64,000 nucleotides of DNA from Candidatus Bathyarchaeota archaeon (GCA_963707955.1 OY970176.1:2282765-2346764), one strand, 5' to 3'; shown: positions 1,376-52,124, counted from the first letter of the stretch. The notes: a model not told the origin generated them from the letters alone. Numbers and translations: made by a program.

Positions 1376-1541
1376 CGAAACAAGTTAACAGCAAAACTCA
1401 CATATAAGATATTTCGCTTCGATGCCTAAGCGCGCGCTTGCCACAAATCAACAGGAAATTGCTTGAATATTCAGATTACATTCGTTCTGAAAAACGGAAC
1501 ATAGCCCAACATCCAACGAGGATTTTTAGTCAAAAGGAAGC

Positions 1542-1642
1542 TCAGACATGGCAGTAGGCAGACTCTTGACACGTTGATTAGTGAAGAGGCTTACTTGCTT
1601 GCAAAGTTTCTGAGGCATGAACGGGAAACATGGGTTCCAAGA
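1542..1642 (+). pseudogene. Gene fragment resembling the C-terminus of archaeal solo Cas1 (copy 1)
   Basis: LRHGSRQTLDTLISEEAYLLAKFLRHERETWVPR; near-identical to 12814-12942(-); family assignment is from memory only. Confidence 0.5.
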
Positions 1643-1882
1643 GAAGAGAGCGCACGCGACGTCAAAGAAGTGAAAGAAATACTTGATGGAAAACGAGATT
1701 ACGCACTGAATTATGAACCTCCAATAGACGTGAACCTGAATGAAAAGAAAGAACAGCAGAAAAAACGTGTTTGGACAATTGACTTAGACACTCTTACAGG
1801 TCACAGAGCGCGCGACATACTTGCGGATTTCCTTTCTTTTTCGAAATAGCTTGACTTGCACATGTCACAGACCTTCTTAGAT

Positions 1883-2662
1883 CTAGATTTTATCAGGCTT
1901 GGCAGATGCGTCTTGTTTGTACGATTTGTCGTAGAAGAGATCTGGATCCATCTTCAGATACTCCACGTACAATTCTATTAGCTGTCTTAACTTGACTAGC
2001 TCAAGCGTGGCTTCTCCAACCTTGACAGTTTTCATTATTCCTCGTGCAATACAAGGATTCGTCAACTTTGCAAAATCTGGGTAAGGACCAAAATCCCATT
2101 CCCACTCGCCCTCAGGATACTTCTCAATGAGCCAATGTGGCGGAGTGATCTTCTCTAGGATGCGCTCAGGGAGTTGGACAAGTTTCTCAGCCAAGTGCAT
2201 GGCAGTACAGCTTTCTAGGCCGACGCCGATGAGCAGTATGTAACCGTCCCGGTCAAGCAGTCTATGCCAGCCTTCTGACAGTTCTTTTGCGTTCGGTCCT
2301 AGAGCTGCGATAGAGTTGCTGGGATGAGAGCCGCGGACTACACCCTTCCTCTTTCTAAAAGTCTCGGGAATTATGCCCGTTCTTACGGGTGTCTCCTTAG
2401 GATCATACGGTAGAAGCTTAAGCAACCATGAAACCCCTATCGCAATCTCCTCAGGTGTCCTTCGATCTTCAGACACGTTTGCAGAATGCGTCGACATTAC
2501 TATGTTTCCTTCCTGCCCAACAATCTCCAAGAGAGCATCGATAACAGCATCAGCCCCGCCCTCAACGTGCCCGAAACGCCTCAAGGAGCTGTGAACGCCA
2601 ACAGAGTCGCCTTTCTTCAACCCCAGTGTCCTTAGGCCAGCCTTAATATGCTCCTTATTCAC
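1883..2662 (-). CDS. AAC(3)/YokD-family N-acetyltransferase
   Basis: LGLKKGDSVGVHSSLRRFG, GIIPETFR, SHPSNSIAALG, ILLIGVGLESCTAMHLAE motifs. Confidence 0.9.
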   Translation of the reverse strand: MNKEHIKAGLRTLGLKKGDSVGVHSSLRRFGHVEGGADAVIDALLEIVGQEGNIVMSTHSANVSEDRRTPEEIAIGVSWLLKLLPYDPKETPVRTGIIPETFRKRKGVVRGSHPSNSIAALGPNAKELSEGWHRLLDRDGYILLIGVGLESCTAMHLAEKLVQLPERILEKITPPHWLIEKYPEGEWEWDFGPYPDFAKLTNPCIARGIMKTVKVGEATLELVKLRQLIELYVEYLKMDPDLFYDKSYKQDASAKPDKI

Positions 2663-2734
2663 TGACTCCAGATTTCCCTCTCCGCTGCATTCATTCGACG
2701 CTTAGCGCGCCGGCTAACTTTTCCGACATATCCA

Positions 2735-2867
2735 ATGTTGGTTGGTTTGGATAAGACTTTACCCTTTTTCTCTCTCCTACTCTACCTTCCTCTCTACCTC
2801 TCTTATTCTACTCCTCTTCTCACAAAACTGCACAATAAACTATAACTCACACACAAAGAGCGCGCGC
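2735..2867 (-). repeat. Low-complexity TG/AG tract with GGGTAAAGTCTTATCC pseudo-palindrome (copy 1 of 4)
   Basis: Same layout as 6370-6530, 10810-10957 and 16761-16900. Confidence 0.55.
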
Positions 2868-2973: not shown

Positions 2974-5900
2974 TTGTCTAGGAAGACTGTTTCTGCAATA
3001 ATGCTATTTTTGTTGGTGATAAGCACATTAACATTGGCATTTAAGATTCAATCAGTCAAAGCAGACGATGGAACTGTCTACGTTAATGCTGACGGAAGCA
3101 TAAGCCCGATCAGCGGCAATGTTGTCACAAATGTCACTTCGTTCGAGGCCATTAGATGGCAGGAAAAAACGTTCTTCGCTGCTGGAAGGTACTGGCTTTT
3201 TTATGTTGACGGAGGTTACCCCACAGAGAGCTCCTTGCCGAGCTCCACGATGTATTATACGACAAGCACGGATGGAGTTTCTTGGACCCCTCCGACCGCA
3301 CTTGCATCTGGTCTCAGTGAAAACTCTGGAGAAAACGTACAGGCATTTCTAAGCAATAGTGGATATCTCCAAGTTTTTTATAGGATTAATAATGAGCTTT
3401 TCTACCGCATGGGGAGTCCCAACTCAGACGGTTCAATAACGTGGGCGACACCTAGCTGGCAACTCGTCTTCAATGCTAATGCAGCAGAAGGAGAAGCAAG
3501 CGGTACGTGTGACTTTTTCGCAATAGTCGACTCTAACAATTATCCTTGGGTTTCTTGGGGGTACGTCCAAGAGCCGATACAGTTGCTCAATCCTTCAGAC
3601 ACTAAAATGTACGTTTGGAAAGACGCGTTTAACAATGGCACGTGGCAGACTGCCTCAGGCTTTCCCTATAACGTAGGCACTGGCAACTATACAAACGACT
3701 TGATGATTCCGCTTTCGAACGGTCAAAATTACGTAATGTACTTTCTTGATAATCCCCCCTTAAGCGGTCAGATCTATGGTGAACTGTGGAACGGCACTGC
3801 GTGGGGGCCTCAGGAAACATGCACAACCAGTCAGGTGAATGAGCAATACGTTTGGGGACAGGAATCCTGGGACAGAACTGCAGTTGCGGATTCAAACGAT
3901 AACATATACCTGGCTTTTTTGTCCACAACACTGAACTTGGTTTTTGTCGAGCGCACGATGAGCGGTGGATGGACTAGCGAAACAATCGTGCAAGGTGGCT
4001 GTGGCATTTATTCGTCTCCTTCATTCAACTTATACGACGACAACCTGCGACTGTTTTGGATTAACAGTTCCACCTCAATATGCTACAAGAAATACGTTGG
4101 CGGCGTATGGGATACTGACCCGACTTTGATAGTGAATGAAACAAACTCTCAGATTGCAGTCGGCACCTCCGTCGACGGCACGGATGATGGACGTTTAAAC
4201 GCTTTCACAATGTCTCTTGATGGTAGCATTGGCTTGTTGTGGGTAAACAATCAAACAGTGACGAACACTGGTCAAATAATGTTCGGGCTTCAACCGCAGA
4301 CAGCACTGACATTCTCAAACATCGGTTTAAGCAGCACAGTAGCAAATTCGACTTGCACGTTCAGCTGTTGTTGGACCGACACGCAAGGACTTGGTGCGTT
4401 CATTTTCTCGACAAACAATACCGGCAACTGGCAGAACGACTCCACGGTGAGTCTCAGTGGCACTGTCGCGTGGACAAACGTGACGAAGACTTTGAACCCC
4501 ATAGTGGGCACGGTCGTCGGTTACGAATGGTTCGCAAACGACACGAATGGCAACTGGGCATCGACAGGAATTCAAACATTAACAACACACGCGCCCGCTG
4601 GTTATATCTCGACCGAACCCATTTACATACAGGCCGACGGAAGCATACAACCGTCAACAGCGCCGATTTCCAGCGTTGACAACGTGACCTACACGTTAAC
4701 AAACGATATCACGGCAAACGTCACAGCCAGTTCCAGCGCAATCATCATACAAAGAGACAACATCACAATAGACGGAGCAGGCCACACGCTGCAAGACTCA
4801 GGAGCTTCAGACTCCGAAGGAATAGATTTGACAGGAAGAAGCAACGTAACAATCAAAAACATGCAAATCACAGCATTCTATTATGGCATCGATCTCAATT
4901 CTTCTTCTAACAACAGCGTGAGCGGAAACAACATAACAAGCAACAGCTGGGCTGGCATCTGGCTCGATTCTTCTTCTGATAATAATAGCGTGAGCGGAAA
5001 CTCGTTTGTTAATTGCGGCTTACTTGTGTTTGATTCCTATGGGAATGTGGTGACTGATAACTTGGTGAACGGTAAACCCTTGGTCTATCTTGAAGATGTG
5101 TCAGACTATGCGGTTGGGGACGCTGGGCAAGTCATACTCGTCAACTGTAACAACGTAACCGTGGAAAACCTCAACCTATACAACACTAACACAGGCGTTG
5201 AACTATGGGAAACAAACAACACCACAATCTCAGATAACGACATAACAGCAAACACCAACGACGGTATCTCGTTCTATTCTTCTGCTAATAATAACGTGAG
5301 CGGAAACAACGTAACAAACGACGGTGCTGGCGTCGATTTCGATTCTTCTTCTGCTAATAATAGTGTGAGCGGAAACAACATAACAAACGACGGCTATGGC
5401 ATCATGCTCTTTTCTTCTGCTAATAATAGCGTGAGCGGAAACAACATAACGAACAACGGCTATGGCATCATGCTCTTTTCTTCTGATAATGATAATAGCG
5501 TGAGCGGAAACAACATAACGAACAACAGCTGGGCTGGCATCTATCTCCTTTCTTCTGCTAATAATAGTGTGAGCGGAAACAACATAACGAACAACGGCTA
5601 TGGCATGATGCTCTTTTCTTCTGCTAATAATGGCGTGAGCGGAAACAACATAACAAGGAACAGCTGGGCTGGCGTCTATATCGATTATTCTGATAATAAT
5701 AGTGTGAGCGGAAACAACATAACAAACAACAGGGTTGGCATTGAGATAGATTCTTCCTCTAAGAATACAGTCTACCATAACAACTTCATAAACAACACCG
5801 GCCAAGTTTATTCTTCTGGCTCGACTAGTGTTTGGGATGTTGGCTATCCCATTTGTGGAAACTACTGGAGCGACTACAACGGCACAGACTTGTACAGCGG

Positions 5901-6372
5901 GCAATATCAGAATGTGACTGGAAGCGACGGCATAGGCGACACACCATACGTTATTGACGCCAATAACACGGATTTTTACCCTCTGATGGGAGGATTCTCA
6001 GACTTCAATGTTGTACAAGGCGTTGATGTTCAGGTTGTGAGCAACTCCACGGTTTCTGATTTTCAGTTCAACGGAACCGCTATACTCTTCAACGTTTCAG
6101 GTACGAATGGGACAACGGGCTTCTGCAACGTGTGCATACCAACAGCCCTGTTAAACGGCACTCTCAGCGTGTTCGTTAATGGGACGCAGGTTCAATACAA
6201 CCTCTTGCCCGTCTCAAACAGCAGTATCAGCTACCTGTACTTCACCTACGGCCACTCAGCAGAACAGGTCATAATAATGCCCGAGTTTCCTGAGCCTCTC
6301 ATCCTAGCAATGTCCATGTTAGCGACACTGTTGACAATTGCAATCTACAAGAAAAAACATAGCCGTTCTTAG
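2974..6372 (+). CDS. Secreted NosD/parallel beta-helix surface protein with N-terminal BNR/propeller-like insert and C-terminal PEF-type membrane anchor
   Basis: Signal peptide; TSTDGVSW Asp-box-like motif; 22-aa SxNNSVSGNNITNN repeats; GNYWSDYNGTD...GDTPY; C-terminus MPEFP + TM + KKK. Confidence 0.9.
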   Translation: MSRKTVSAIMLFLLVISTLTLAFKIQSVKADDGTVYVNADGSISPISGNVVTNVTSFEAIRWQEKTFFAAGRYWLFYVDGGYPTESSLPSSTMYYTTSTDGVSWTPPTALASGLSENSGENVQAFLSNSGYLQVFYRINNELFYRMGSPNSDGSITWATPSWQLVFNANAAEGEASGTCDFFAIVDSNNYPWVSWGYVQEPIQLLNPSDTKMYVWKDAFNNGTWQTASGFPYNVGTGNYTNDLMIPLSNGQNYVMYFLDNPPLSGQIYGELWNGTAWGPQETCTTSQVNEQYVWGQESWDRTAVADSNDNIYLAFLSTTLNLVFVERTMSGGWTSETIVQGGCGIYSSPSFNLYDDNLRLFWINSSTSICYKKYVGGVWDTDPTLIVNETNSQIAVGTSVDGTDDGRLNAFTMSLDGSIGLLWVNNQTVTNTGQIMFGLQPQTALTFSNIGLSSTVANSTCTFSCCWTDTQGLGAFIFSTNNTGNWQNDSTVSLSGTVAWTNVTKTLNPIVGTVVGYEWFANDTNGNWASTGIQTLTTHAPAGYISTEPIYIQADGSIQPSTAPISSVDNVTYTLTNDITANVTASSSAIIIQRDNITIDGAGHTLQDSGASDSEGIDLTGRSNVTIKNMQITAFYYGIDLNSSSNNSVSGNNITSNSWAGIWLDSSSDNNSVSGNSFVNCGLLVFDSYGNVVTDNLVNGKPLVYLEDVSDYAVGDAGQVILVNCNNVTVENLNLYNTNTGVELWETNNTTISDNDITANTNDGISFYSSANNNVSGNNVTNDGAGVDFDSSSANNSVSGNNITNDGYGIMLFSSANNSVSGNNITNNGYGIMLFSSDNDNSVSGNNITNNSWAGIYLLSSANNSVSGNNITNNGYGMMLFSSANNGVSGNNITRNSWAGVYIDYSDNNSVSGNNITNNRVGIEIDSSSKNTVYHNNFINNTGQVYSSGSTSVWDVGYPICGNYWSDYNGTDLYSGQYQNVTGSDGIGDTPYVIDANNTDFYPLMGGFSDFNVVQGVDVQVVSNSTVSDFQFNGTAILFNVSGTNGTTGFCNVCIPTALLNGTLSVFVNGTQVQYNLLPVSNSSISYLYFTYGHSAEQVIIMPEFPEPLILAMSMLATLLTIAIYKKKHSRS
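5240..5790 (+). repeat. Intragenic ~66-bp tandem repeats encoding PbH1 units
   Basis: Repeated tcttctgctaataatagcgtgagcggaaacaacataac units. Confidence 0.9.
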
Positions 6373-6796: not shown

Positions 6797-7260
6797 GGTC
6801 CGATTTATCCCTTATGCGGTCCCGCCAATTCATGTCAGCGAGTCCCCCGTAAACGAGGGATCTGTCTTCATCTTGCATTGGGCGAATGCTTATTGCGCGT
6901 CTAGCCGTCACGTTCCTAATCAAACTTGAGCTTGCTTTAAAAGTTTGGTTGAGAAGACTGCGTCTCACCAGCATACTTCAGCACATAGTTTCGTGACGAG
7001 CCAGCGCGCTAATACATTAGTCCATGCCACCGCTAAGTATTAGTGCTTTTCAGTCTAGCAATTTCTTGAAAACTCTCATTGACTAGAGATTACTTCTATC
7101 ACTCCTTTTATGCCAGTTTGACGCGTTTATCCCTTGGAAAAAAACGGTCATGCTAAGACGGACTTCGGGAGATATCTCCACTTTGTGTTTGGTGCAAACC
7201 TTCTGAGTGTGCCGTTTTACTAAAATACAAGAGTTAGCCCCTATTCTATTGGGACCCGCT

Positions 7261-8163
7261 ATGCCCATAAACGAGCTTGACCTTCTTTTAACTTACAAAT
7301 GCAACCTAGAATGCGATCATTGCTTTGTCTTCGGGAGCCCAGATGCAAGAGGTGTGATGAAAATTGCTGACATACGAAAAATATTGAAAGAAGCAAGGAA
7401 GATCAAGAGCATTGACTGGATATATATTGAAGGTGGCGAACCTGTTCTTTACTATCAGATTCTCTTGTGGGGGTTGCGTGAAGCAAAAAAGCAGGGGTTC
7501 AAGACAGGGTTTATTACGAATGCTTATTGGGCGACGTCGATTGAAGATGCAAAAGAATGGCTGAAACCTATTTCAGAAATAGGCATATCTAACGTGATAA
7601 TAAGCGATGACCTCTTCCACTACGGCAAGGAGGAAGAAAACCTTTCGAAATATGCTTTTCAGGCAGCCAAGGAGTTGCGAGTTGCTGTAAGCAACATCAG
7701 TATAGAGCAACCCAAAGAATACATGACTAGGAAAGAATGGAAGGGGAGACCTGTCACAGAAGGAGCTGTGCTATTCAAAGGGAGACCTGCTGAAAAACTC
7801 GTTGAAGGCTTGCCGAGGAGGCCATGGGAGAAATTTGACAAGTGCTTAGACGAGGATTTCTCCAATCAGAAGCGGGTACACATCGACCCCTTCGGGTACG
7901 TTCACCTGTGTCAAGGCATAACCATGGGAAACATGAATAAGACCCCACTGCACCGATTGTTTGAACAGTTCGACCCATACCAGCACCCTATATGCAAACC
8001 AATTCTAAAAGGAGGCCCAGCTGAACTTGTCAGAACATATCATGTTAATCACGAAGAAGCCTATGTGGACGAATGCCACCTCTGCTACTTGACCCGGCTG
8101 AAACTGCGAAAGATGTTCCCAGAGATTCTTGCACCCAACCAGATGTATGGAATCTTCACCTGA
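7261..8163 (+). CDS. Radical SAM protein
   Basis: CNLECDHC, EGGEP, TNAYWA; C-terminal DECHLC. Confidence 0.9.
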   Translation: MPINELDLLLTYKCNLECDHCFVFGSPDARGVMKIADIRKILKEARKIKSIDWIYIEGGEPVLYYQILLWGLREAKKQGFKTGFITNAYWATSIEDAKEWLKPISEIGISNVIISDDLFHYGKEEENLSKYAFQAAKELRVAVSNISIEQPKEYMTRKEWKGRPVTEGAVLFKGRPAEKLVEGLPRRPWEKFDKCLDEDFSNQKRVHIDPFGYVHLCQGITMGNMNKTPLHRLFEQFDPYQHPICKPILKGGPAELVRTYHVNHEEAYVDECHLCYLTRLKLRKMFPEILAPNQMYGIFT

Positions 8164-8244
8164 AACGCACACGCATCTGCATTTCCACGAAGTTAGGGCA
8201 TGTGACAGACTTGACCCCCTCTTCCAAGCGCATTTCGCACGCGC

Positions 8245-8364
8245 GACTTAGACCCGAATGGGTTTGAGTCCACTGCTTTAAAAATCCTGTAACCAGCATT
8301 CTCTTTGTTCAGGCCAACTGGTTCAGAGCTACTCGACCCCATACCCAAAAGGGTTCAGGTCCTA
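8245..8364 (-). repeat. ~120-bp dispersed att-like element, copy A
   Basis: Reverse complement matches the core agctctgaaccagttggcc...caaagagaatgctggttacagga...aagcagtggactc; ends at CGCGCG. Confidence 0.9.
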
Positions 8365-9265: not shown

Positions 9266-9715
9266 TCTGACGGAACTACAAGGCATTACAAATTCCCGCA
9301 CGCGCTTTTCTAATTAGAAATAGAAGCGGCTATTAGGCTAGGCAAATCCATTCGTTCAATCTTGAAGTCTCGCGCCATCCATTGGACATTTGAGCGGATA
9401 ATTCTCTTTGCTCAACATTCGTTGGCTGTCGTAACATCAAGAAAGACGGAAATGGGGTACTTGCAAGAATTGAAAGAGAATCCTACTCCTTCTAAAAGTC
9501 TATAGACTGAAGTTCTGATTGAGTTACAGCATGCTCTGCTTAAAGGGACGCCCTCGCAACAAAGATTTCTCAAACTCTTGTTAAGATGTCAAAGAACTTG
9601 TTGAGCGCGCGCTTTCCAGCAAGATTCACTACAACCAGCTCAAAACTATTCCACAAGCTTCGGAAACACTTTTTTGTGTAGGCTGACAAGACTGAAGCAG
9701 GGTGTAGAGTCGAAC

Positions 9716-12942: not shown

Positions 12943-13054
12943 CGCGCGGTTTACCCAGGATCTTTCGGAGCCGCTTATCTAACAGTCTCTTTTTGGCAGT
13001 ATTTGTCCACTCGGCAACACTGGTTGGAGATCCCAGCGGGCGCTAAATAGCGCG

Positions 13055-14047
13055 TTAATTCGATGCTTCTTTAGCGCGCGTTTTCAAAGTTTCTGAGGCC
13101 TTTTCTGCCCATTTCGGGTCCTTCCAGAGCGCTCTGCCCACGGCCACCAGGTCAACTTTGCCGTCTCGAACTAGTCTGTCAGCATGCTCGGCCTCGGTGA
13201 TTCCTCCTACGCCTATGACTGGAGCATTGACGGCCTTCTTTATCTCGTAGGCCTGAGGAATGAAGTAGCCCTTGACGTTTCGAAGCTGCTTGGGCTCGCT
13301 TCCACAAAGGCCGCCTGACACGTCGATGATGTCGACGCCATTTTGCTCAAGCTTCAAGGCAAAGGCAGCCGAATCCTCAACCTGCGTTCCTTTCGGGGCA
13401 AGGTCGTCCGCGCCTAAACGGTAGAGTAGAAGTTTGCCTCTAACTCTTTCTCGAACCGCGTTAACTACCATGAGGGGAAAACGTGTCCTGTTCTCCAAGG
13501 AACCCCCGTACTCATCTCGACGCTTGTTGAACAGGGGTGAGAAGAACTGGTTGAGCAGGAAACCGTGCGCCCCATGAAGCTCCACACCGTCAAAACCGGC
13601 TTTAACCGCGCGATCGGCAGCCATGGCGAACTCTTCTACCAAAGCCTCAATCTCATTTCTTGTCAGTTCGCGGCTCTTCTCCGTTGCAGAGGGGCTCGTA
13701 GGCTCTGCGCCGATGATTTTCTCGTTCGCGATGCCCCCCGCATGGGTAATCTGTACAACGACAGGAGTGTCGACCGCGTGTATGGCGCCCGTAAGCCTCT
13801 CTAACCCGTCGATCAACTCGTCATCGTACATGCCTAGCTGCTTTGAACTCAACTTTCCACTTGCAGAAACGAAAGAGTGCTCCACAATGAGCAGGCCTAG
13901 CGCCGCTGAACGCCTAACATAGAACTTGATGAGCCTGCCAGTGACGGCGCCTTTAACCGTGGCTCGACCTGTTTGCATAGGAGGCATAACTATCCGGTTC
14001 CTGAAGATCAGATCCTTCACTTCTAGAGGATCAAGAAGCCCCACCAA
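13055..14047 (-). CDS. NADH:flavin oxidoreductase (Old Yellow Enzyme family)
   Basis: RNRIVMPPM, AGFDGVELHGAHGFLLNQFFSP, RRDEYGGSLENR, DLVAVGRAL. Confidence 0.95.
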   Translation of the reverse strand: MVGLLDPLEVKDLIFRNRIVMPPMQTGRATVKGAVTGRLIKFYVRRSAALGLLIVEHSFVSASGKLSSKQLGMYDDELIDGLERLTGAIHAVDTPVVVQITHAGGIANEKIIGAEPTSPSATEKSRELTRNEIEALVEEFAMAADRAVKAGFDGVELHGAHGFLLNQFFSPLFNKRRDEYGGSLENRTRFPLMVVNAVRERVRGKLLLYRLGADDLAPKGTQVEDSAAFALKLEQNGVDIIDVSGGLCGSEPKQLRNVKGYFIPQAYEIKKAVNAPVIGVGGITEAEHADRLVRDGKVDLVAVGRALWKDPKWAEKASETLKTRAKEASN

Positions 14048-14347
14048 CTCCCAACACCAAGAAGACTACAGACTAGTTCACGTCTATAAGAACATAGCAC
14101 AAGTGCGGTAAGAACAAGGCCACAAAAAGATGTTGCCTCTCTGCCCTTCCTCAGCGCGCGCCGCACGCTATTCATTGCCTTACATAAGGAAGCTCTGCAT
14201 ATATGCATATCTTTGGTAAGAAACATAAATGCTAATGTACTAAACAAAATTGTGGTTGAAATCACACAGAGGACATCAAAATCGAAGAAGTTTTATAACA
14301 TAGCAACTGAAAGTTAAATGTGCCTCGTACGTAAGGAGGTGAAAAAA

Positions 14348-14668: not shown

Positions 14669-14850
14669 CGCTACATCGCGTTGAGAGGTCGCAATTGTGT
14701 CATAATGGCTGCCAATTCTGCCTCTAAGAAGAGCGAGCGCTATTGTGCAGCGCGCGCTATCGTAACATGTAAATCTGTCTCCTCACAGCAAATCCTTAAT
14801 TGTGTATGCGACCAAGAGCGTCGTTGCCGAACTGGGAGAGGCGCAAGGGA

Positions 14851-15699
14851 TTGATTAAGCGAGTTAGTATCGTTCTTGCGAATTATTGTCCGCACTGTGT
14901 ACCGTTTTCTCTGCGTAATGCTAACAAAATGTCCAGAGACCTTGGGGTTCCGCTTCTTACTCTTGACATAGAGATCCCCGAGCAGCTTGAGGCGGCTGAC
15001 AGGCTCGTCGAAGAACACGGCGATTGGTCGGAGGATTATCTTATCCCTCAAGTCTTTGTTGAACACATGGACGGGAGAGTTAATCACGTATTAACTGGTT
15101 TTTCAGAGGCAGTTTCGGTGACAGAACGTTCTTGGAAAGCGCTGTTTTCGAGTAGTTACTATCAAAGTCTCGTACATGGAGAACCGGCTATCTCGTTGCC
15201 TCACTCATCATCCCGTCGTAAGTCGTTGAAGGAGTTTGTGGAGGCATACCTAACGTTCGATGGACAATGTTACAGGCACTGCGATAGCCCTTCCTCCTTC
15301 GTAGATCTGCGATCCGACTCGGATAATGTCATCGGAGCATACGTCTGCCCCGGCGGATACGTGTCTAGGGTTGTCTACTTCAGTGTTTACCCAGATGTCA
15401 AGCAATTAAGAAGCTTCCTTATCTCCCAAGTCGGTAAGGAAATTGTTAACGATCGCGATATCCGTCCAGCCACTAGGCACGGGTGGGAATTGGGAGGTGA
15501 TGCTTTGGCTGAGATTGGTGAAGTGAGCCCCACCGGTGTCATAAAGGAGATCTATTGGACAGTCTATGCCAAAACCGAAGACGAGAGAAGACGTGGAGTT
15601 TTTATCTGCTCACATCCTAGGAAAGGAATGGGATGTAACAGACTATTCGTTCAAGACAAGAAGTCAAGAAACAGATTGTGCCCAAAGTGTAAACAGTGA
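14851..15699 (+). CDS. Thioredoxin-like (YCPHC) protein with Cys-rich C-terminal domains
   Basis: YCPHC and cis-Pro-like IPQV; CYRHC; CSH...C...CPKC. Confidence 0.65.
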   Translation: MIKRVSIVLANYCPHCVPFSLRNANKMSRDLGVPLLTLDIEIPEQLEAADRLVEEHGDWSEDYLIPQVFVEHMDGRVNHVLTGFSEAVSVTERSWKALFSSSYYQSLVHGEPAISLPHSSSRRKSLKEFVEAYLTFDGQCYRHCDSPSSFVDLRSDSDNVIGAYVCPGGYVSRVVYFSVYPDVKQLRSFLISQVGKEIVNDRDIRPATRHGWELGGDALAEIGEVSPTGVIKEIYWTVYAKTEDERRRGVFICSHPRKGMGCNRLFVQDKKSRNRLCPKCKQ

Positions 15700-15876
15700 A
15701 GCGCGCGCTAAGGCTTTCTCTAATTTGGTGACTAGAGATAATGGCTTTTGAAAAAGCCGTTTTCCCTATTCCACACCCAACAGGTTTCTAAGCGAAATCC
15801 ACACTTTAAGGCTTGCCCAGTAACCGCGAGTTAGAAGATTCTTCTCAATCACCAGCGCGCGCTCCAAGATGATGAC

Positions 15877-16973: not shown

Positions 16974-17402
16974 ATGAGAATAATCTATGGATTCGTTTTG
17001 TTGGCTATCATCTTCGTAGCTTGTTTCGGCTTTCAATCATACCTAATAATGCATCTACAGTCACAGTTAGACAATGTTCAGCATCTGAATGACGAGAGCA
17101 TTAAACCTAAGGTTGTTGTCTTGTCGTATACATGGGCACTATCTTCATATGACCCATTAGAGAGCATGGTGAGTGCTAACTGCACGTTGCTAAATCTGAG
17201 TCCAACCACAGCGGTGAATGTGGAAATAGACATTACTGTTTCAGTACAGAATACGACCATAACTTGGGTACGTACCTTAGCTGATTTTGACCCTTGGCAT
17301 ACGGAAAACGTCTATGATATAGTAGTTATCTATAACAGTAGTTTAGGAGTACCATTGAACGTTTGGCTTACACCTAGATGGAACGGTATGTATGGATATT
17401 AG
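16974..17402 (+). CDS. Membrane-anchored hypothetical protein
   Basis: N-terminal TM, short coiled coil, beta-rich domain; stop overlaps TTAGCGCGCGCTAA. Confidence 0.7.
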   Translation: MRIIYGFVLLAIIFVACFGFQSYLIMHLQSQLDNVQHLNDESIKPKVVVLSYTWALSSYDPLESMVSANCTLLNLSPTTAVNVEIDITVSVQNTTITWVRTLADFDPWHTENVYDIVVIYNSSLGVPLNVWLTPRWNGMYGY

Positions 17403-17479
17403 CGCGCGCTAAGGCTGAATCACGCGTAAAGATTATCTGGCCGATCCTAAAACTTTACGGGAGTAAGTGTTGAAGTCAC

Positions 17480-17839
17480 ATGGATGTTAGCGGCGTTGCC
17501 GACGAGAAGTACATCTATTTAACAACTAGAGGTAGGAAGACTGGAAATCCACACACGGTTGAATTGTGGTTTGCGATAGCTGGAAAGAAAATCTATCTTA
17601 GCCATGAAGGAGCGTACACTGACTGGATGAAGAACATTCTTGAGGATGGTCGAGTCGAGTTTAAGGTCGGAAAGATCCAGTTTGAGGGCATTGCTCGAAT
17701 TGCTGAAGGTGGGGAGGTTTTTGAATTGGGAAAACATGTTCTCTACCTTAAGTATTATGGCAAGGCAGACGAAGACACGATTAACGATTGGTTCTCAGAG
17801 TCAACAATAATCGAGATCTCAATGATCGGTAGAGTATAA
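17480..17839 (+). CDS. Deazaflavin(F420)-dependent nitroreductase/quinone reductase family (split barrel)
   Basis: LTTRGRKTG.PH, TDWMKNI. Confidence 0.85.
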   Translation: MDVSGVADEKYIYLTTRGRKTGNPHTVELWFAIAGKKIYLSHEGAYTDWMKNILEDGRVEFKVGKIQFEGIARIAEGGEVFELGKHVLYLKYYGKADEDTINDWFSESTIIEISMIGRV

Positions 17840-17918
17840 AGCGCCTATGGTAAGAGGTTGATGAATTGATGAAATGGAAGTCCGTGAACTAAACCTGACG
17901 GCGCGCTGAAGAATGAAC

Positions 17919-17946: not shown

Positions 17947-18451
17947 AGCGCGCTGGCTTTCTCTCTAGGCGAATTACACAATACGCTAAGGACACGTTGG
18001 ATTCGACCATTGAAACTAGACTTTTGTTGAGTTATCTGTGATGCCTAAAACGTGTTTTGGCAAATGGGACTGCAAAGAGTTTGGAGACACACTAGTAAGA
18101 TTGTTCTACCAAGTAGCTAGTGGTTCTTGACAGCATTACTAAGTGGAAAATAGCGCGCGTTAATCCACGAAGGCGCTCTCAGCAACCTCGTCAACCAAGC
18201 ACTGGGAAACACACAGCGTGATACCTATCCTTCCGTGATCCATAAGCACTATAAAAACAAGCTTGATCTAGACTAAAAATGATCGCGCGCGCAAGAAAAC
18301 TGCTCAAATCTGGCGAACCCGGTGCAAGAAAAAAAGGGAATGAGGTTGGGAATGGTTCTAGCTGTATTGGAGGTTTTGTATGCGGCTCTCGTACGAGGTT
18401 GTTCCCCAGTAGAACGTGGATGAGGTTATCTTAAGTTGGCGGTTGTAGACA

Positions 18452-18732
18452 GCGCGCGCGCTGAAGTAATATTCAGTGATGATCTCGCTAACAACGTCTC
18501 TCTTGCCTTCGAATCGAAGAGCCCAGATTCGAAAATCCTGTTCTTGGGCGATCTTCCATCCGAAGTGCTTGACGTTGTTCACATAGAACCCGGACGATTT
18601 CATTTGGTCAAGGCTGCTCACCATGGGACTGAATTTGGCAGCAATCTCGAGCCTGTTTCTGCCGATTTCGTTTTCATATCAAGAAATGAAAGAGAGTTTA
18701 GAAATCAAGGATATTTGTCCGAATTATCTTGA
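18452..18732 (+). pseudogene. C-terminal fragment of a ComEC-like MBL-fold hydrolase
   Basis: NNVSL, ILFLGD, KAAHHG motifs; no N-terminus, begins at (GC)5. Confidence 0.65.
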
Positions 18733-20223: not shown

Positions 20224-21219
20224 CGCGCGCGCGATCCATAGTGCAGGACCGTTTGCACCGTTGCCCCCATTTAAGAAAGTATCGACGCCTTGTGGGTCGT
20301 TTTCGAAGACTTGGCCATTGTCAGCCCATATTCCAACGGTGTACCAAGAAACGCTTTCATTGTTGACTTTGTCAAAGGTTATCGCGACACCCCATGCTGG
20401 ATAAATCGCAAAATCGTCTCCTCTGAACATGTCAATGTCCCGGAGCCAAGTGAGTGACGCATTCACAGAGACGACCCGCTGTCCGTGTTGTTGCGCGTAG
20501 TTTTGGGCAATGGAATTTGCGATGACCTCTGCTTCTTCCTCTGAGACAGTAATGTTTGTACTTGCAACGTAATAGAGGTCCATGTTATCGGAGATCGAGG
20601 TTACTAGGCCGTTCTTTGACACGCATATTCCCAGAAATTCCTCAAAATTCGTGTTGTTTATTCTTTTCGCCCATTGAAGGTCGGTGTATCTCCTGTAGTC
20701 TTCGGGCGTTGAGCAGTTTGCAACGCATGACGCATTCAGTACAGTGTCGCCATTTTCGGCAGAGAATTTAGAATTGTTAAGCGCAGCGGGGATCATTTCG
20801 GCGAATGTGTCGCCATAGGTCAAGTTCAGGGTTTCTCCGTATTGTCTGACAGTTCTGCTTGCCACTGCTAAACAGTTGCTAAAAGTTTCATTTCCAGAGA
20901 ACTGGGTAGTAGGTGAGGTTAAGTCAAACATGGTGAGTTTTCCATCCTCGAGGAGCATCGAAGCCACGAACGTGTCGTTGTTGACTGTGACCTCCAATTG
21001 CATGGGAGTCTCAACGTGTTCAGAACCAGTCATTGTGCTACCTGTCGTGGAGTTGAAGGAGACGATTTGGAAATTGCTGAATCCGATGACCTTCGTCAGA
21101 AAATTCGTGGCGAACTGCCCTGTAACGTCATACGCGTGCCCATGCACAATCGTAGTCGGCAGGGTTGCCGAGAATACGAGAAAGATGCCTAAGAAAGCCA
21201 TGATACACTTCTTGCTCAT
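20197..21219 (-). CDS. Secreted hypothetical protein, C-terminal anchor apparently truncated
   Basis: Signal peptide; many N-X-S/T sequons; YPAW...WADNGQV PepSY-like end; sequence changes character at CGCGCGCGCG 20224-20233. Confidence 0.75.
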   Translation of the reverse strand: MSKKCIMAFLGIFLVFSATLPTTIVHGHAYDVTGQFATNFLTKVIGFSNFQIVSFNSTTGSTMTGSEHVETPMQLEVTVNNDTFVASMLLEDGKLTMFDLTSPTTQFSGNETFSNCLAVASRTVRQYGETLNLTYGDTFAEMIPAALNNSKFSAENGDTVLNASCVANCSTPEDYRRYTDLQWAKRINNTNFEEFLGICVSKNGLVTSISDNMDLYYVASTNITVSEEEAEVIANSIAQNYAQQHGQRVVSVNASLTWLRDIDMFRGDDFAIYPAWGVAITFDKVNNESVSWYTVGIWADNGQVFENDPQGVDTFLNGGNGANGPALWIARANEGSSHCF

Positions 21220-22703: not shown

Positions 22704-22788
22704 ATCAGAGACCTCCAATCAGGATCGACCAGTCAACATATGTCAACTTAGACAAGGGGACACGACGGTATTTAAATCGCGCGCGCTC

Positions 22789-22886: not shown

Positions 22887-22997
22887 TAGAGACCAATTCC
22901 GGAAACGGTACGAATCCTTATAGTTCTGCCTTTCTTGCACAAGCGCGCGCTAAGTGGCTTTTCACGGCCGTCTTGAGGCGTGCGAGTTCTCTTTTAC

Positions 22998-27862: not shown

Positions 27863-28004
27863 AAGCATTTGCACGCTAAATGGCGCGCGCTTGTTACAGT
27901 TTATGTGTCTCCAACCCCTAGGGAAAACCTTTCGAATCAAATCGTCGGAAACACAGAATAGTGAAAAAAGCACACGAGTCACTTAAGATAGCGCTTGCTC
28001 GGTT

Positions 28005-28421: not shown

Positions 28422-28790
28422 CTCTCTCAACTCCTTTACGGTTGCTGTGCAAAAATCACTTCTTACACGCTGCACCTACCCTTCACACCGACACTTATAA
28501 ACAAATGCCTCATAAATCATAAAGCCTAGACTCATAGAGTCTGAATCAGAGAACAACAGACGCCCGCGCCCCATTGTTACGGAAAATCTTTACGTATCAC
28601 CCGCCGCGCAGCGCGCGCGCAACTTTGCCATGCCCAGAAGCCTTCAGAACCGTAGTTCTCCGGTGTTCGTTGTGAATATACCCTGACCGTGAGAACTACC
28701 CGCACGCGACGGGCTGTGGTAAAGATTTATATTTGTGAGCACTTTTGCCTTATTCGGACTAGTAAAATTAACCTTGGATGGAGGGTTTGT

Positions 28791-31500: not shown

Positions 31501-31948
31501 CGAGCATAAAGCAAAGTACCCAAAGACTAGTTTCTTTAGCTAGCTGGCTAACTAGCTTTTTTCACCATTCATAGAACTTGCAAGCATATCCTTTTACTTC
31601 CCAAACCCAAACGCAACTATTTGTTACCTTTAGAATGTTTTGCAAGAAGCGAAACCTGCTTTTTCTCTTTTCTTTTCAGTTCTTTCTCTCGCCGTAATTT
31701 TTTATGCTGCTCTAAACCTGCAGCTTTCGTTTCTCTTCTTGACAAAACTCATCAACTTTAGCAGGCAGTAGAAACATTTAGCATTTCAAAGCGTTGTCCT
31801 TTTGTCTACAACTGAAGGGCGTATACTCGATTCGCGCGCGCTAAGGTTAAGAAGGCTTGAAAAGACGCTACATTAACCTGGCCCGCTTTCATTTTGTATG
31901 GCATCCAACGCTTCCGACAAGCGACATACTCATCTAACCCAACTCTGA

Positions 31949-42834: not shown

Positions 42835-42847
42835 GCGGCTGACGTTT

Positions 42848-48431: not shown

Positions 48432-48547
48432 ACGCTACATCCCTGTATTCGCGTTTTTCCCCTTCTATTTTACCCCCCCCTCCCCCCTAGGGTGTTAGTA
48501 CTGCACGTGGGCGTTCGCGAGGGCCCTACTGACTTTGTATGGGCTTT
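48432..48547 (+). repeat. ~110-bp intergenic direct repeat, copy 2
   Basis: Matches 40511-40620. Confidence 0.9.
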
Positions 48548-48687
48548 AAGCTGAGCTTGTGTGGAGGGTTTGAAAGAGGGCTGCGCGAGGGTAGTTACTT
48601 TTCTATGTGCTTGACCATCGCTCATTAGCGCGCGCGTCTATTAGGTTGCACCGTGGAATTAACTGCAACTGTGACATTTTGGGAGAG

Positions 48688-49518: not shown

Positions 49519-49818
49519 CGCGCGTCGGTTAAGACGAGAACGTCGCCACGCGCACGCATGCGCGGTTTGAGCTTTGCTTGTTAAAATGTGACGGTTGGCG
49601 GGTGTTAGGTTTGCTTTCTGTTGTGATTAGCGCGCGCTTTGAGAGTTGATGGCGTGGGATGAGGAATGGGGAATGTTGTTAACGCGTCGTTGCCCGTTGC
49701 AGTTTTGCGCTGCGAGTGAGTGGTCGTTCTTGATATATTGTTAGGCTTGAAATATCCTTCTAATGAGGGTTTCTTGTACGTTTGGAGTTGTAAGTGTTGA
49801 GTAGACACAAGAGGTTCG

Positions 49819-51054
49819 GTGTGGCTTCGGTTGAGAATTGCGTTTGTAGACTTGGATATGTCTCCGAGAACTGGATCGAGGCGTTTTACTTGTGAGGTGG
49901 CTAGTGAACTTCAGGCTATGGGTCATGAAGTTGGAATTTTCACGTCTAGGCTGGATACTCAGAGATGTTTTAGACAGTGCTTATCTCTTCCTGTTGATGT
50001 CGCTTCGAGTCGTGGTTCCTCTCAAGAGGGAAGCGCAAGTGTGCTGACGAGGGCGATCAGGAAGTTCGGAAAAAATGCGATAATCAATCTTGCGAATAAT
50101 TATGAATATGACTTGTTAGAGACCGATTTCGCTTTGAAGACGAGCGAAAAGATTGTGAGCATGGGATACGAAGCAGTTCTTTTTCAGTACCATGGGGAAC
50201 ATTGGCTTTTTCCAGTCTTCTATCACCTGAACGGAGCGAAAGGTGCCGTGTTTCTTAACATGGTTCCGCCGAGGCCTCGGTCGGAGGCTTTGCCTTTTCA
50301 GGAATCGACTCTGGAACGAAGGATTGTAGACAGGCTGGTCAGTCTGCCTTTTGTCCGTAGGTTTGAGAAAGTAAGCCTCAGAAACGTGGCTTTGTTTGTC
50401 ACTCCGAGCGAGTTTCAGCTTCAGCAAGCGCGGGTGCAAGGTGTGATTGGGCAGAAGAAGGCTGCTGTTGTTCCGTTAGGAGTTGATCATTGCGAGTTTT
50501 GTCCGACGGGTGAAGAGGAGCCTTTTGCGCTTTATGTAGGGCGGATTCATCCTCATAAGTCGTTGGAACTGGCGATGATGTCCATGAAGAACATGGATTC
50601 AGACTATTCGCTGGTGATTGCTGGAGACGTTGACGACGGTAACGTTGAGTATGTGGAGAGGCTTCTGAGTCTGGCTGAGGAGTTGAAAATCTCGGACAGG
50701 TTTGAACTGATTTTGCATCCGTCAGAAAGGCGGATTGTTAGGTTGATGCAGAGTTGTTCGGCTTTTTTGTTTCCAAGCACTATTGACACTTTTGGACTTG
50801 TGGTTCTTGAAGCTATGGCCTGTGGAAAACCAGTTGTGGCTTGCAACAGAGGAGGTGTTCCAGAGATAGTCGGAGACGCGGGATTCCTTATTGAGCCAGA
50901 TCCAGTTCAGTGGGAGAAAGCCGCTACAAGACTGCTGTCAGATTCTGAGTTTCGGCACGCTATGGGACAAAAAGCATTGCAGCGATCCGAAGAGTATTCA
51001 TGGAAACACACGACTTGCCGATTGCTCGAAGCTTTAGAAACCAAGTGTGCCTAG
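49819..51054 (+). CDS. Glycosyltransferase family 4
   Basis: VGRIHPHK, FPSTIDTFGLVVLEAMACGKPVV. Confidence 0.93.
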   Translation: MWLRLRIAFVDLDMSPRTGSRRFTCEVASELQAMGHEVGIFTSRLDTQRCFRQCLSLPVDVASSRGSSQEGSASVLTRAIRKFGKNAIINLANNYEYDLLETDFALKTSEKIVSMGYEAVLFQYHGEHWLFPVFYHLNGAKGAVFLNMVPPRPRSEALPFQESTLERRIVDRLVSLPFVRRFEKVSLRNVALFVTPSEFQLQQARVQGVIGQKKAAVVPLGVDHCEFCPTGEEEPFALYVGRIHPHKSLELAMMSMKNMDSDYSLVIAGDVDDGNVEYVERLLSLAEELKISDRFELILHPSERRIVRLMQSCSAFLFPSTIDTFGLVVLEAMACGKPVVACNRGGVPEIVGDAGFLIEPDPVQWEKAATRLLSDSEFRHAMGQKALQRSEEYSWKHTTCRLLEALETKCA

Positions 51055-51086
51055 TTGATGCGTGCCCTTTTTGAAGGGCGCGCTAG

Positions 51087-51959
51087 TTGAGTGTGACGTT
51101 TGGCGGAGTGTCAGGTTTGCTTTCTGTTGTGATTCCGGCGCTTAACAGTGCGTCTACGATCGGTTTGACTCTTTCTTCGGTTTTTTCTAGTAGTTTTCCG
51201 CGGGAATTGTTCGAGGTGCTCGTGGTTGATAATGGGAGTTCCGATGGGACTGTGGAAGTGGCTCAGAGGTTTCCGGTGAGAGTGGAGCGTTGTGCTGAGA
51301 GAGGCATTGGGCCTCCTAGGAACGTTGGCATCAAGATGGCCAGGGGAAGCATTGTTTGTTTGACGGATTCAGACTGCGTCGTCGAGGAGGATTGGCTGGG
51401 GAAGATTTGGGGTTTTTTCGAGAAGCATTCAGATGCGGATGGGGTGGGCGGGCCGGTTTTTCCTTATCCTGTTAGTCAGAACAAGATTCAGAGGCTGACG
51501 GGCGAGCTTTTTGTTGAAGATCAAGGATATCCGAGTAGCATCAGGAAGGTGCGGTTTGGCTCTATGAGCGGCATGATTTTCGGGTCTAACAGCGCGTACA
51601 AGAAGGATGCTGTTAGATCCGCAGGGGGTTACTCCGAGCCTGGGGGTTCAAACTTGGAGTCTGCGTGGAGACTCGCTTGTTTAAGACGGAATCTTTTTTT
51701 TGATCCTGAAATAAGAGTCAGTCACATTTTTCCGTCGAACCTCAAAGGCATTTTCAGGCAGCAGTTCAGGTGGGGAGCACAATCGACACATATGAAGCGA
51801 ATGTATCACTTGGACAATAGGGCAAAGGAAATTGTCTTCATTTCTTGCTTTCTTGTTCGCCGTTTGCTTTCTCTGGTTTCTCCTGATGATAGGAAGCTGT
51901 TACACTTTTTCCAGATGGCAAGTTACAGCTTCGGTCGTGTCTATGGGCTTCGTTTGTGA
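51087..51959 (+). CDS. Glycosyltransferase family 2
   Basis: SVVIPALN, VVDNGSSDGT, TDSDC, QQFRW. Confidence 0.93.
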   Translation: MSVTFGGVSGLLSVVIPALNSASTIGLTLSSVFSSSFPRELFEVLVVDNGSSDGTVEVAQRFPVRVERCAERGIGPPRNVGIKMARGSIVCLTDSDCVVEEDWLGKIWGFFEKHSDADGVGGPVFPYPVSQNKIQRLTGELFVEDQGYPSSIRKVRFGSMSGMIFGSNSAYKKDAVRSAGGYSEPGGSNLESAWRLACLRRNLFFDPEIRVSHIFPSNLKGIFRQQFRWGAQSTHMKRMYHLDNRAKEIVFISCFLVRRLLSLVSPDDRKLLHFFQMASYSFGRVYGLRL

Positions 51960-52124
51960 GATCGTGGGACATGGTATCTGAAACAAAGAAACGGTGTGAA
52001 ACGCGACGATGACGGGCATAAGGCACGTAAAAAACATAGTGAATGTCTCAGCTGCCTGAGGCCTATTGGTGTGCAAATCCTTCGCATATCTGGTGGCGCG
52101 CGCATACCTGCGCTGAATTAGGAA

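Follow-up and report, generated by a model that had tools for sequence, protein, structure and literature searches.

The palindrome GCGCGCGC, eight letters long and scattered between the genes of an uncultured archaeon, shows a strong association with accessory-genome junctions, as supported by comparison with its relatives. In those comparisons, mobile elements occupy the motif at sites where the empty alleles of close relatives contain one GC run, the homology shared with a close relative breaks off at the motif far above chance, and one and the same accessory gene has the motif on both sides in several genomes. We tentatively interpret GCGCGCGC (probability roughly 0.4) as a non-coding joint within the flexible genome, a palindrome that is cut and that takes up mobile DNA. 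Each insertion would duplicate part of the palindrome and leave the insert bracketed by two copies, so that motif copy number would grow with every event. Copies would last only where insertions are tolerated, between genes, and would then decay neutrally. Gene-sized segments lacking terminal inverted repeats may enter, leave and be trimmed at the same sites, possibly by cut, fill and join reactions of the same type, and this process would be what makes the motif abundant. An earlier sequence-only reading had proposed a recombination crossover that assembles accessory genes into a mosaic, and as a whole it was partly supported.

Within the window, the whole 64,000-nt stretch analyzed, GCGCGCGC gave 21 overlapping matches at 19 sites (18452 and 28611 being 10-mers), and the motif was present at all 19 coordinates that the sequence-only reading had listed (Table 1). 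Dinucleotide-preserving shuffles of the window (n = 100; mean 0.72, maximum 5) reached 21 in 0 of 100 cases. By rough gene calls, 17 of the 19 sites are intergenic, the exceptions being 18452 and 20224, and the hdr/cof/hem block is free of sites as described (none between 31842 and 48627). Abutment on stop codons was likewise found at 15697, at 17400-17402 and at 49516, where TAG is followed by the one-mismatch copy GCGCGCGT. Two supposed cut places, 8240 and 12943, carry only short CGCGCG near-matches. In three samples (X1, X2, X3), short-read contigs cross window sites unaltered; these sites are not an artefact.

Table 1. Motif sites and gene-sized blocks in the window (positions counted from its first nucleotide)
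Feature	Position	Strand	Context
GCGCGCGC site	1430..1437	.	intergenic
GCGCGCGC site	2860..2867	.	intergenic, divergent spacer
Block C, radical SAM gene unit	7241..8159	+	90% identical to G009 contig 28, unrelated locus
GCGCGCGC site	9605..9612	.	intergenic
Block B, Oxidored_FMN gene unit	13035..14128	-	92% identical to G007 contig 6, unrelated locus
One-mismatch copy GCGGGCGC	13036..13043	.	exact left edge of block B
GCGCGCGC site	14154..14161	.	25 nt past right edge of block B
GCGCGCGC site	14750..14757	.	6 nt ahead of block A
Block A, lone accessory gene (299-aa ORF)	14764..15710	+	no Pfam family
GCGCGCGC site	15701..15708	.	one base past TGA stop of block A
GCGCGCGC site	15855..15862	.	with 15701 encloses a unique 146-bp segment
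GCGCGCGC site	17402..17409	.	first G is the G of a TAG stop; 3 nt ahead of block D
Block D, F420H2 quinone reductase-like gene unit	17413..17844	+	88-92% identical to G009 and G007, unrelated loci
CGCGCGCGC site	18284..18292	.	intergenic
(GC)5 site	18452..18461	.	inside a doubtful 88-aa ORF
CGCGCGCGCG site	20224..20233	.	near stop-codon end of a 340-aa ORF (20197-21219, minus strand)
CGCGCGCGC site	22778..22786	.	immediately ahead of one copy of a miniature-element-like local repeat
GCGCGCGC site	22943..22950	.	intergenic
GCGCGCGC site	27883..27890	.	20 nt past a stop codon
(GC)5 site	28611..28620	.	intergenic
CGCGCGCGC site	31833..31841	.	intergenic
GCGCGCGCG site	48628..48636	.	end of a repeat-family copy (48433-48635)
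GCGCGCGC site	49630..49637	.	intergenic
GCGCGCGC site	52096..52103	.	21 nt ahead of a called gene start

The same excess holds for the genome (G000), a single contig of 2,346,764 bp. It contains 464 overlapping matches in 419 maximal runs, against expectations of 28, 26 and 34 under Markov models of orders 1, 2 and 3. Genes were called with a home-made dicodon score that assigned 81% of the genome to coding DNA; some real genes are missed, so figures for spacers are approximate. By these rough calls, 384 of the 419 runs lie outside genes or at their edges (371 intergenic, 13 at a gene edge, 35 coding), which corresponds to 0.86 runs per kb of intergenic and 0.018 per kb of coding DNA. The motif is at chance level in coding DNA and roughly 75-fold over-represented in spacers. 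Run lengths also separate the two compartments. Counts of coding GC runs of 4, 6 and 8 nt fall off steadily (3355, 249 and 15), while spacer runs of 4, 6, 8, 9 and 10 nt (842, 261, 252, 116 and 45) form a second peak at length 8 and then stop sharply at 10-11 nt (two runs of 11, none longer).

Comparison with a relative about 92% identical to G000 (G007) pointed to neutral turnover of the sites. Spacers alignable between the two are mostly 90-95% identical. Within them, 5 of 12 motif 8-mers were identical, a small sample, compared with a fraction of 0.441 across the full set of 67,255 spacer 8-mers and 0.393 among 8-mers made up of G and C only. Conservation of the motif is that of the background, and it decays like neutral sequence; one-mismatch relics number 812 in spacers and 393 in coding DNA. 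Sites concentrate in recently changed DNA. Unalignable spacer carries 94 sites in 77,572 bp and alignable spacer 21 in 75,130 bp, a density 4.3 times higher in the former (1.21 versus 0.28 per kb).

Homology with the close relative ends within 2 nt of a G000 site in 20 of 256 cases, and on a motif in either genome in 29 of 256 (about 11%). As only 0.76% of 5000 random spacer positions fell on a site, homology ends do so about ten times more often. The proposal that breakpoints are enriched at the motif was borne out to this extent, but most homology ends lie elsewhere. Ends of relocated blocks showed no enrichment relative to collinear ones (3 of 26 versus 26 of 224). The crossover reading is supported insofar as sites mark accessory-genome junctions, and is not supported by the relocated blocks or by the imprecise joints described below.

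Breakpoints of this kind could also arise at a fragile site without a dedicated enzyme, where an alternating GC tract breaks (as putative Z-DNA or a hairpin) and its hundreds of copies serve as micro-homology in illegitimate recombination. Deletions, insertions and exchanges would then begin or end at identical GC-rich copies. At many breakpoints the edge of the motif in one genome is precisely where homology stops, and the other genome lacks a motif there; small length differences occur immediately beside the motif in orthologous junctions. Among 16 loci fetched from relatives, two show a repeat or short segment truncated by the motif at a new position. The genome also encodes a complete end-joining (Ku/LigD) operon, and 8 of the 11 genomes from the genus have Ku. 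At the level of the class, however, Ku does not track the motif, being found in 3 of 14 motif-rich genomes, and the Ku-rich families f24 and f34 are motif-poor; a link to end joining fails at this level. Fragility would account for loss and rearrangement, but not for the spacer excess or the length stop, and we consider it unlikely as the main explanation.

The preferred interpretation, a joint at which DNA enters, draws gene-level support from block A of the window. This block has the motif on both sides in 5 of 5 genomes, with differing offsets and neighbors and unrelated DNA beyond, and metagenome contigs contain two more junction variants. Homology of its region with G001 and G007 stops at the 15701 site. 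Part of the adjoining 146-bp segment also occurs at another position in G001, directly beside a motif, and sites 18284 and 18452 enclose a 159-bp segment within which a short sequence recurs in relatives. For block B, the G007 orthologue has a perfect motif at the left edge, where the window has GCGGGCGC (13036). The motif abuts block D in G000, G009 and L076 at offsets that differ, and for block C it occurs 80 nt upstream in G009 only. The repeat family with a copy at 48433-48635 has 22 further copies in the genome.

Such arrangements would also be expected of a dedicated cassette system, in which an integron-like site-specific recombinase uses an orientation-free palindrome as crossover and moves single-gene cassettes. 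Besides the consistent bracketing of block A, motif-rich islands show a gene-motif-gene-motif order with genes on either strand, an arrangement that a palindromic site would permit. One island (806-886 kb; 48 sites per 100 kb) has two paralogous tyrosine recombinases in its middle, of 9 tyrosine recombinase matches overall. At several breakpoints both genomes carry the motif, with unrelated DNA beyond. Conservative recombination, however, would fix the distance between motif and gene, and this distance was different in every genome compared for blocks A and D. For the same gene in different genomes, the 5' spacer from the motif is 6, 14, 20 or about 50 nt, or the motif cuts into the block, and 3' offsets range from about -35 to +5 nt. 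This variation argues against precise site-specific recombination. The site is moreover 8-10 bp long without conserved flanks, and known tyrosine or serine recombinase sites are far longer. With the small share of homology ends on the motif also against it, we regard a cassette system as distinctly unlikely.

IS5-family insertion sequences, miniature derivatives and one cargo element insert into the motif and duplicate part of it. The cargo element measures 1750 bp and carries a MEDS/HTH gene, a zinc-ribbon gene and terminal inverted repeats; GC runs of 6 and 8 nt lie on its two sides, where G007 and G001 have a single 8-mer. A miniature element in G001 has flanks of 6 + 6 nt, and its site is a perfect 8-mer in G000 and a decayed 8-mer in G007. 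A 122-bp miniature element of G000 corresponds to an empty site with a 6-nt run in G007, and an 8-mer of G000 is interrupted in G007 by an insert of 184 bp. GCGCGC adjoins about 62% of the 135 terminal-repeat cores in G000. Both transposase-bearing copies adjoin the motif and belong to the IS5 family, with DDE_Tnp_1 and DUF772 domains; the elements have terminal inverted repeats and duplicate a short stretch of the target.

These elements account for occupancy of the motif, not for its abundance. The apparent duplication varies by event (4, 6, 6 and about 8 nt), a length that is ambiguous (4-6 nt) because the target is itself a palindromic repeat. Ends of miniature elements adjoin runs of 6-7 nt (38 of 534) and hardly ever runs of 8-10 nt (3 of 453). 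Given these short runs and the varying duplication size, regeneration of the dominant 8-mer class is not accounted for. Among 36 clean indels relative to G007 contig 1, none was an insert without terminal repeats that had a single motif in the empty allele and motif-insert-motif in the filled one. Across the class, the IS5 transposase clade occurs in 30 of 151 Bathyarchaeia genomes, 18 of them in the motif-poor family f24, and in none of the 5 from the motif-rich family f35. Motif hits within the genus number 359 in G009, 254 in G008 and 128 in G004, but the matching element ends in these genomes number only 1, 2 and 0, respectively. The IS5 family was accordingly rejected as a general cause, since there are motif-rich genomes and families without the element. 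Neither Ku nor this clade explains the patchy spread of the motif across Bathyarchaeia.

The relationship might instead run the other way, with the 8-mer a scar of transposon excision composed, for example, of two retained copies of a 4-nt GCGC target duplication or of retained element tips. GCGCGC lies beside the ends of IS5-family elements of 4 or more subfamilies, the sharp length limit fits the joining of two short GC runs, and scars would build up only between genes and decay neutrally, as observed. Yet aligned DNA contains 20 sites that either G000 or G007 has and the other lacks, and 0 of them showed a clean change from GCGC to GCGCGCGC; 13, counted by eye, were point decays and the others complex, two or three differing by 5-7-nt indels of other content. 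In addition, the two elements comparable in three genomes each show a solo motif in two genomes and the element in one, which fits insertion into an existing motif. Together with the motif-rich genomes and families that lack the element, these results make excision scars very unlikely as the source.

Selection by the host, for example for a nucleoid or regulatory protein binding site, a terminator or an RNA signal, appears just as improbable. A perfect palindrome, strictly intergenic placement and preferred flanks (A before and T after the motif in 166 and 162 of 231 exact 8-mers) would suit such a role. The flank logo shows information only at two bases either side of the 8-mer. Tandem spacers also show a modest excess near stop codons (54 of 190 in the first fifth). 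Against this, density is much the same across spacer types (0.79 per kb in tandem, 1.20 in convergent and 0.77 in divergent spacers) and length classes (0.65-1.07 per kb throughout), conservation in the small aligned sample is that of the background, sites are enriched in the least conserved spacers, and an Rfam search of the window gave no family match. Position within spacers is roughly even, and an intrinsic terminator or promoter element was rejected for want of a fixed position or orientation relative to gene ends. In behavior, the sites are unlike promoters, terminators or conserved binding sites.

Among known systems, HIP1 of cyanobacteria (GCGATCGC) resembles the motif as an octameric palindrome that is specific to some lineages and one to two orders of magnitude over-represented. 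It first drew attention at the border of a deletion. According to PMC5861425, HIP1 is enriched and conserved inside as well as between genes and is considered to be under selection; PMC4390886 links it to orphan methyltransferases. The analogy drawn by the sequence-only reading breaks down on the first two of these points. The present motif is at chance in genes (15 coding versus 252 intergenic runs of length 8) and is conserved, in a small sample, only at background level. A search of G000 for the C5 methyltransferase family (PF00145) gave no match. PF01555 methyltransferases are present, and 27 of 31 relatives have them whatever their motif content.

REP elements and BIMEs, with their RAYT transposases, are likewise intergenic, lineage-specific, present in hundreds of copies, targeted by insertion sequences and located at rearrangement points, all of which holds for the motif. 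REPs, however, are imperfect palindromes of 20-40 nt with a loop and a conserved tetranucleotide, whereas the motif is a perfect palindrome of 8-10 nt with one or two conserved flanking bases, and a search of G000 for the Y1 (IS200-like) transposase, PF01797, gave 0 matches. Integron arrays and integrase-less attC clusters share with the motif the placement of single accessory genes between short recombination-associated sites in variable islands, and the occurrence of the same gene with different neighbors in different genomes. An attC is a folded site of 55-140 nt. The integron likeness suggested earlier was not supported, as the motif lacks an attC-like structure or any conserved flanking sequence beyond its 8-10-nt palindrome, the genes lie in both orientations and cassette boundaries are imprecise. 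The occupants of the motif, finally, resemble the IS5 family in their DUF772 and DDE_Tnp_1 transposase remnants, terminal inverted repeats and short target duplication. They differ in their target: TA-centered sites are usual for this family, while here the target is an alternating GC palindrome.

Across the source genome we counted the palindrome GCGCGCGC, taking each maximal GC run of at least 8 nt as one site. The sequence-only reading had named 19 places in the window, and the 8-mer is present at all of them. Two are 10-mers, giving 21 overlapping matches, while dinucleotide-preserving shuffles of the window yielded a mean of 0.72 and a maximum of 5. The genome is one contig of 2,346,764 bp, of which the window forms the last 64 kb, and it carries 464 overlapping matches in 419 maximal runs, against 26-34 predicted by Markov models of orders 1 to 3. 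The opposite phase CGCGCGCG occurs on its own only 36 times (267 length-8 runs minus 231 in GC phase), and the remaining alternating octamers number 17-79 copies each.

No shared sequence was found past the palindrome and its immediate flanks among the 419 sites, the logo being flat beyond two bases. The 231 exact 8-mers are preceded by A in 166 cases and followed by T in 162; the 114 with both equal the prediction under independence. A longer repeat around the motif was rejected on this flat logo and on a terminus-anchored repeat common to only 90 of 1978 run flanks. A TA target duplication was also rejected, TA standing at both sides 19 times versus the 23 that independent sides would give. 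Three window pairs lie 154-168 bp apart, but a period is absent genome-wide, and segments between paired motifs are unique sequences.

Sites are concentrated between genes, as the sequence-only reading had noticed in the window. By our own dicodon-score gene caller (2374 genes, 81% coding; some real genes missed), 371 runs are intergenic, 13 lie at a gene edge and 35 are coding, corresponding to densities of 0.86 per kb in intergenic and 0.018 per kb in coding DNA. Coding alternating G/C runs of lengths 4 to 8 fall steadily (3355, 1301, 249, 56, 15), indicating that coding DNA is at chance level. Spacer runs of lengths 4 to 10 number 842, 473, 261, 130, 252, 116 and 45, with a second peak at 8, and the longest GC runs are two of length 11. 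Spacers thus hold discrete (GC)3, (GC)4 and (GC)5 classes with no slippage tail.

Density differs little with genomic context. Tandem, convergent and divergent spacers carry 0.79, 1.20 and 0.77 sites per kb, respectively, and spacer length classes are alike (0.65-1.07 per kb). Position inside spacers is about even, with a modest excess close to stop codons. The alike density and near-even position argue against a terminator or promoter element. Scans of the 64 kb for Rfam families and tRNAs gave none. An origin of the C5 methyltransferase/very-short-patch type was rejected, as the genome has no PF00145 match; N4/N6 methyltransferases were uninformative as to the motif.

The motif is no assembly artefact. 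The worry that its junctions are assembly chimeras was dispelled by short-read contigs from X1 (the likely source sample), X2 and X3, three metagenome samples of one study, which cross window sites unchanged; a fourth sample, X4, yielded short pieces only, none shown across a site. In addition, genomes assembled independently share orthologous motif sites. Public contigs agree with the window arrangement and contain no joints at motif sites, as far as contigs that cannot show rare variants can tell; the four joints listed from them fall in repeated coding DNA at 11.5-12.8 kb or a local repeat.

To follow turnover, the whole 790-kb contig 1 of a relative (G007) was compared with the source genome; 617 kb aligned, mostly at 90-95% identity. 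The window's gene blocks that are 88-94% identical in relatives are therefore relocated orthologues, and recent horizontal transfer was rejected for them. Of 12 motif 8-mers in aligned spacers (a small sample), 5 are unchanged in G007, close to the rates for all 67,255 spacer 8-mers (0.441) and for all-GC 8-mers (0.393). In this small sample, sites therefore decay like neutral sequence. One-mismatch relics number 812 in spacers and 393 in coding DNA, although there is four times as much of the latter, and transitions are foremost among their internal changes.

The motif is statistically tied to variable DNA. Within the part of the source genome syntenic with contig 1 of G007, 21 sites fall in the 75,130 bp of alignable spacer and 94 in the 77,572 bp of unalignable spacer. 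The proposal that synteny breakpoints fall on the motif held for a minority: the distance from a homology end to a site is at most 2 nt in 20 of 256 cases in the source genome, 14 of 256 in G007 and 29 of 256 in either, compared to 0.76% for 5000 random spacer positions. Most ends lie elsewhere, the share at the motif being only about one in nine. Ends are not in excess at distances of 3-1000 nt from a site, which makes the coincidence of motif and end exact. At some ends both genomes have the motif and differ past it; at more, one genome alone has it, abutting conserved flank. Relocated blocks are not richer in the motif (3 of 26 ends vs 26 of 224 for collinear blocks).

Mobile elements use the motif as a site. 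The core of one terminal inverted repeat has about 135 copies in the source genome, about 62% of them adjoining GCGCGC. Its 28 complete pairs are mostly miniature elements of 110-200 bp, and one copy of 1058 bp carries an IS5-family transposase gene with a frameshift (DUF772 and DDE_Tnp_1). Full-length reading frames for transposases of this IS5 subfamily are present in relatives. The motif also adjoins a further, diverged insertion sequence whose terminal repeat is related. A 1750-bp element with the same kind of repeats carries two ordinary genes in place of the transposase; GC runs of 6 and 8 nt flank it, where G007 and a second relative, G001, have a single 8-mer. In G001, a miniature element is flanked by runs of 6 and 6 nt, where the source genome has a perfect 8-mer and G007 a decayed one. 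At two further polymorphic insertions, the empty sites measure 6 and 10 nt. These filled and empty alleles establish the motif as an insertion target of IS5-type elements that is partly duplicated on insertion. The duplication can be narrowed no further than 4-6 nt, since the four events disagree and the target is itself a palindromic repeat. An insertion sequence at 389 kb had flanks with no collinear match beside the element in five relatives.

Other repeats occur in the window. A dispersed repeat of 105-200 bp has 22 further genome copies, no Rfam match, and counterparts at 84-87% identity in G007 and G001. A second, miniature-element-like repeat of about 90-120 bp has all five of its source-genome copies inside the window and more in relatives, one of those in G007 being flanked by the motif on both sides. 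A sequence of about 160 bp lies in opposite orientations inside 1132-aa and 597-aa ORFs. Relatives match it in many places, on either strand, so it is probably a repeated protein module.

Feature coordinates (positions in the window unless marked as contig positions of the source genome, which lie outside the window)
Feature	Position	Content
Block A	14764-15710	299-aa ORF; no Pfam family
Doubled contig depth over block A	14672-16005	
Dispersed repeat copy	48433-48635	
Miniature-element-like repeat copies	8235-8385, 21548-21633, 22789-22882, 28005-28121, 31957-32070	
160-bp sequence	5830-5990, 11340-11503	
Region of positive GC skew	38000-64000	
Motif-rich island	contig 806-886 kb	48 sites per 100 kb
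L079 ORF, inside the island	contig 818421-819419	332 aa
Tyrosine recombinase paralogues	contig 847123-848073, 853333-854286, 296898-297581, 284692-286200, 550490-551551	
Stretch without G007 counterpart	contig 1414420-1427855	13.4 kb; 11 sites, motif at start
End-joining operon	contig 957178-960233 (L113 4178-7233)	LigD primase-polymerase, Ku, ATP-dependent ligase fused to 3'-phosphoesterase

Two gene units with homologues at unrelated loci in relatives, blocks A and D, extend the case to single genes. Block A has the motif at both sides in all five genomes examined (the source genome, G001, G007 and two further Bathyarchaeia), and the sequence past these motifs is unrelated in each. The 5' motif stands 6, 14 or 20 nt or about 50 nt from the block, or else cuts into it; the 3' motif ranges between a point about 35 nt within the gene end and one 5 nt past the source-genome position. 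Loose ends of metagenome contigs supply two more junction variants. The pattern at block D is the same, and in 2 of 16 small repeat loci of relatives the motif cuts at a new position. Such imprecise distances argue against conservative site-specific recombination, and fit a cut-and-rejoin process in which a few bases are lost or gained. In the likely source sample, summed contig depth is twice as high over block A, and the assembly there includes a second, diverged copy with other junctions; more than one variant is therefore present in that community.

The best-supported account, to which we assign a probability of about 0.4, has four steps. The motif would be the joint of a flexible genome, a site of DNA cutting and mobile DNA insertion. 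The GC run would be duplicated at insertion, so that copy number grows with each event; copies would persist only between genes, and survivors would then decay neutrally. We infer that gene-sized segments without terminal repeats take the route used by IS5-type elements, and that this route makes the motif abundant. Clean insertion cases for such segments numbered 0 among 36 simple insertions or deletions.

Four rivals jointly share the remaining probability. A dedicated recombinase system would have to accommodate the variable junctions of block A. An enzyme-free fragile or micro-homology site would be a place of breakage and rejoining in its own right. For transposon scars, IS5-type elements do meet the motif, yet a scar origin is unsupported: a clean GCGC to GCGCGCGC change was seen in 0 of 20 lineage-specific sites in aligned DNA. 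A host-selected element sits poorly with the near-neutral decay of aligned sites.

The IS5 clade was rejected as general cause of motif abundance, failing at genus and class level. Ends of IS5-type elements lie at 38 of 534 runs of 6-7 nt and at 3 of 453 runs of 8-10 nt. Three relatives in the genus have 359, 254 and 128 motif matches versus 1, 2 and 0 matching element ends (G009, G008 and G004, respectively). Among 151 Bathyarchaeia genomes, the clade was found in 30, with 18 in family f24 and none in f35, absences that are weakened by repeats missing from draft genomes. Ku was found in 34 of the 151, mostly in two families. The source genome also contains a complete Ku/LigD end-joining operon. 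A link to Ku was appealing within the genus (8 of 11 genomes vs 1 of 20 outside), but the survey removed it. Genomes were called motif-rich by eye, with at least 13 copies of the 10-mer AGCGCGCGCT and a count well above control. The 10-mer is enriched in several separate lineages: this genus, three further genomes (G094, G148 and G065), all five genomes of f35 and six of seven of f26. Only 3 of 14 motif-rich genomes have Ku, and families f24 and f34, rich in Ku, are poor in the motif.

The nearest known systems are HIP1, insertion-sequence-targeted REP elements and integron arrays, and each has a defining property that the motif does not share. HIP1 is enriched and conserved inside genes; GCGCGCGC is neither, and the proposed likeness fails. 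REP elements combine a stem-loop with a Y1 transposase, whereas GCGCGCGC forms no stem-loop and a Y1 transposase was not found in the source genome. The suggested integron-like array also fits poorly, since integrons have an attC site and precise boundaries, while here an attC-like site is absent and boundaries are imprecise. In full-text searches we found no description of GCGCGCGC in archaeal spacers or of a Bathyarchaeia palindrome; judged by titles and abstracts, papers on highly iterated palindromes that matched archaea concerned cyanobacteria or general methods only. New here are the length classes of GC runs, the conservation test with its neutral outcome, insertions of IS5, miniature and cargo elements demonstrated with empty sites, the patchy class-wide distribution, and negative findings on Ku, the IS5 clade, C5 methyltransferase and Y1 transposase.

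Bathyarchaeia are abundant, uncultured archaea of sediment and peat with widely differing accessory genes, and we know of no established route by which these are gained and lost. The motif offers a concrete sequence handle on this process: it marks borders of variable DNA, attracts insertion sequences and cargo elements, and is met again in several separate families. It predicts positions of structural variants in long-read data, and its distribution is a phylogenetic profile for seeking the responsible nuclease, transposase or recombinase. A more far-reaching possibility, which we consider unlikely, is that several Bathyarchaeia lineages share a putative integron-independent gene exchange with the orientation-free 8-bp GC palindrome as universal joint. 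Inserts would gain two flanking copies and become transferable again, and single accessory genes would travel as cassettes inside species and from one species to another. The putative enzyme would be horizontally mobile, which would account for the patchy motif distribution.

The most motif-rich island alternates gene and motif in both orientations. Of its cassettes compared with relatives, one is unique to the source genome and another is a mosaic of modules that occur separately elsewhere. Inside it, the middle and C-terminal thirds of the L079 ORF each have a match in a separate ORF (about 147 and 160 aa) elsewhere in this genome and in relatives, and the L079 ORF looks like a gene assembled from modules, judging by these matches. 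Five tyrosine recombinase paralogues in the source genome share a conserved C-terminal extension, and two sit in the middle of the island. The 13.4-kb stretch holds extra copies resembling TATA-binding protein, Alba and a CDC48-type ATPase, judged from first residues, and an integrase-like 201-aa ORF adjoins its motif-bearing end. Within the window, GC skew is strongly positive from about 38 kb on, where all genes called are on the plus strand.
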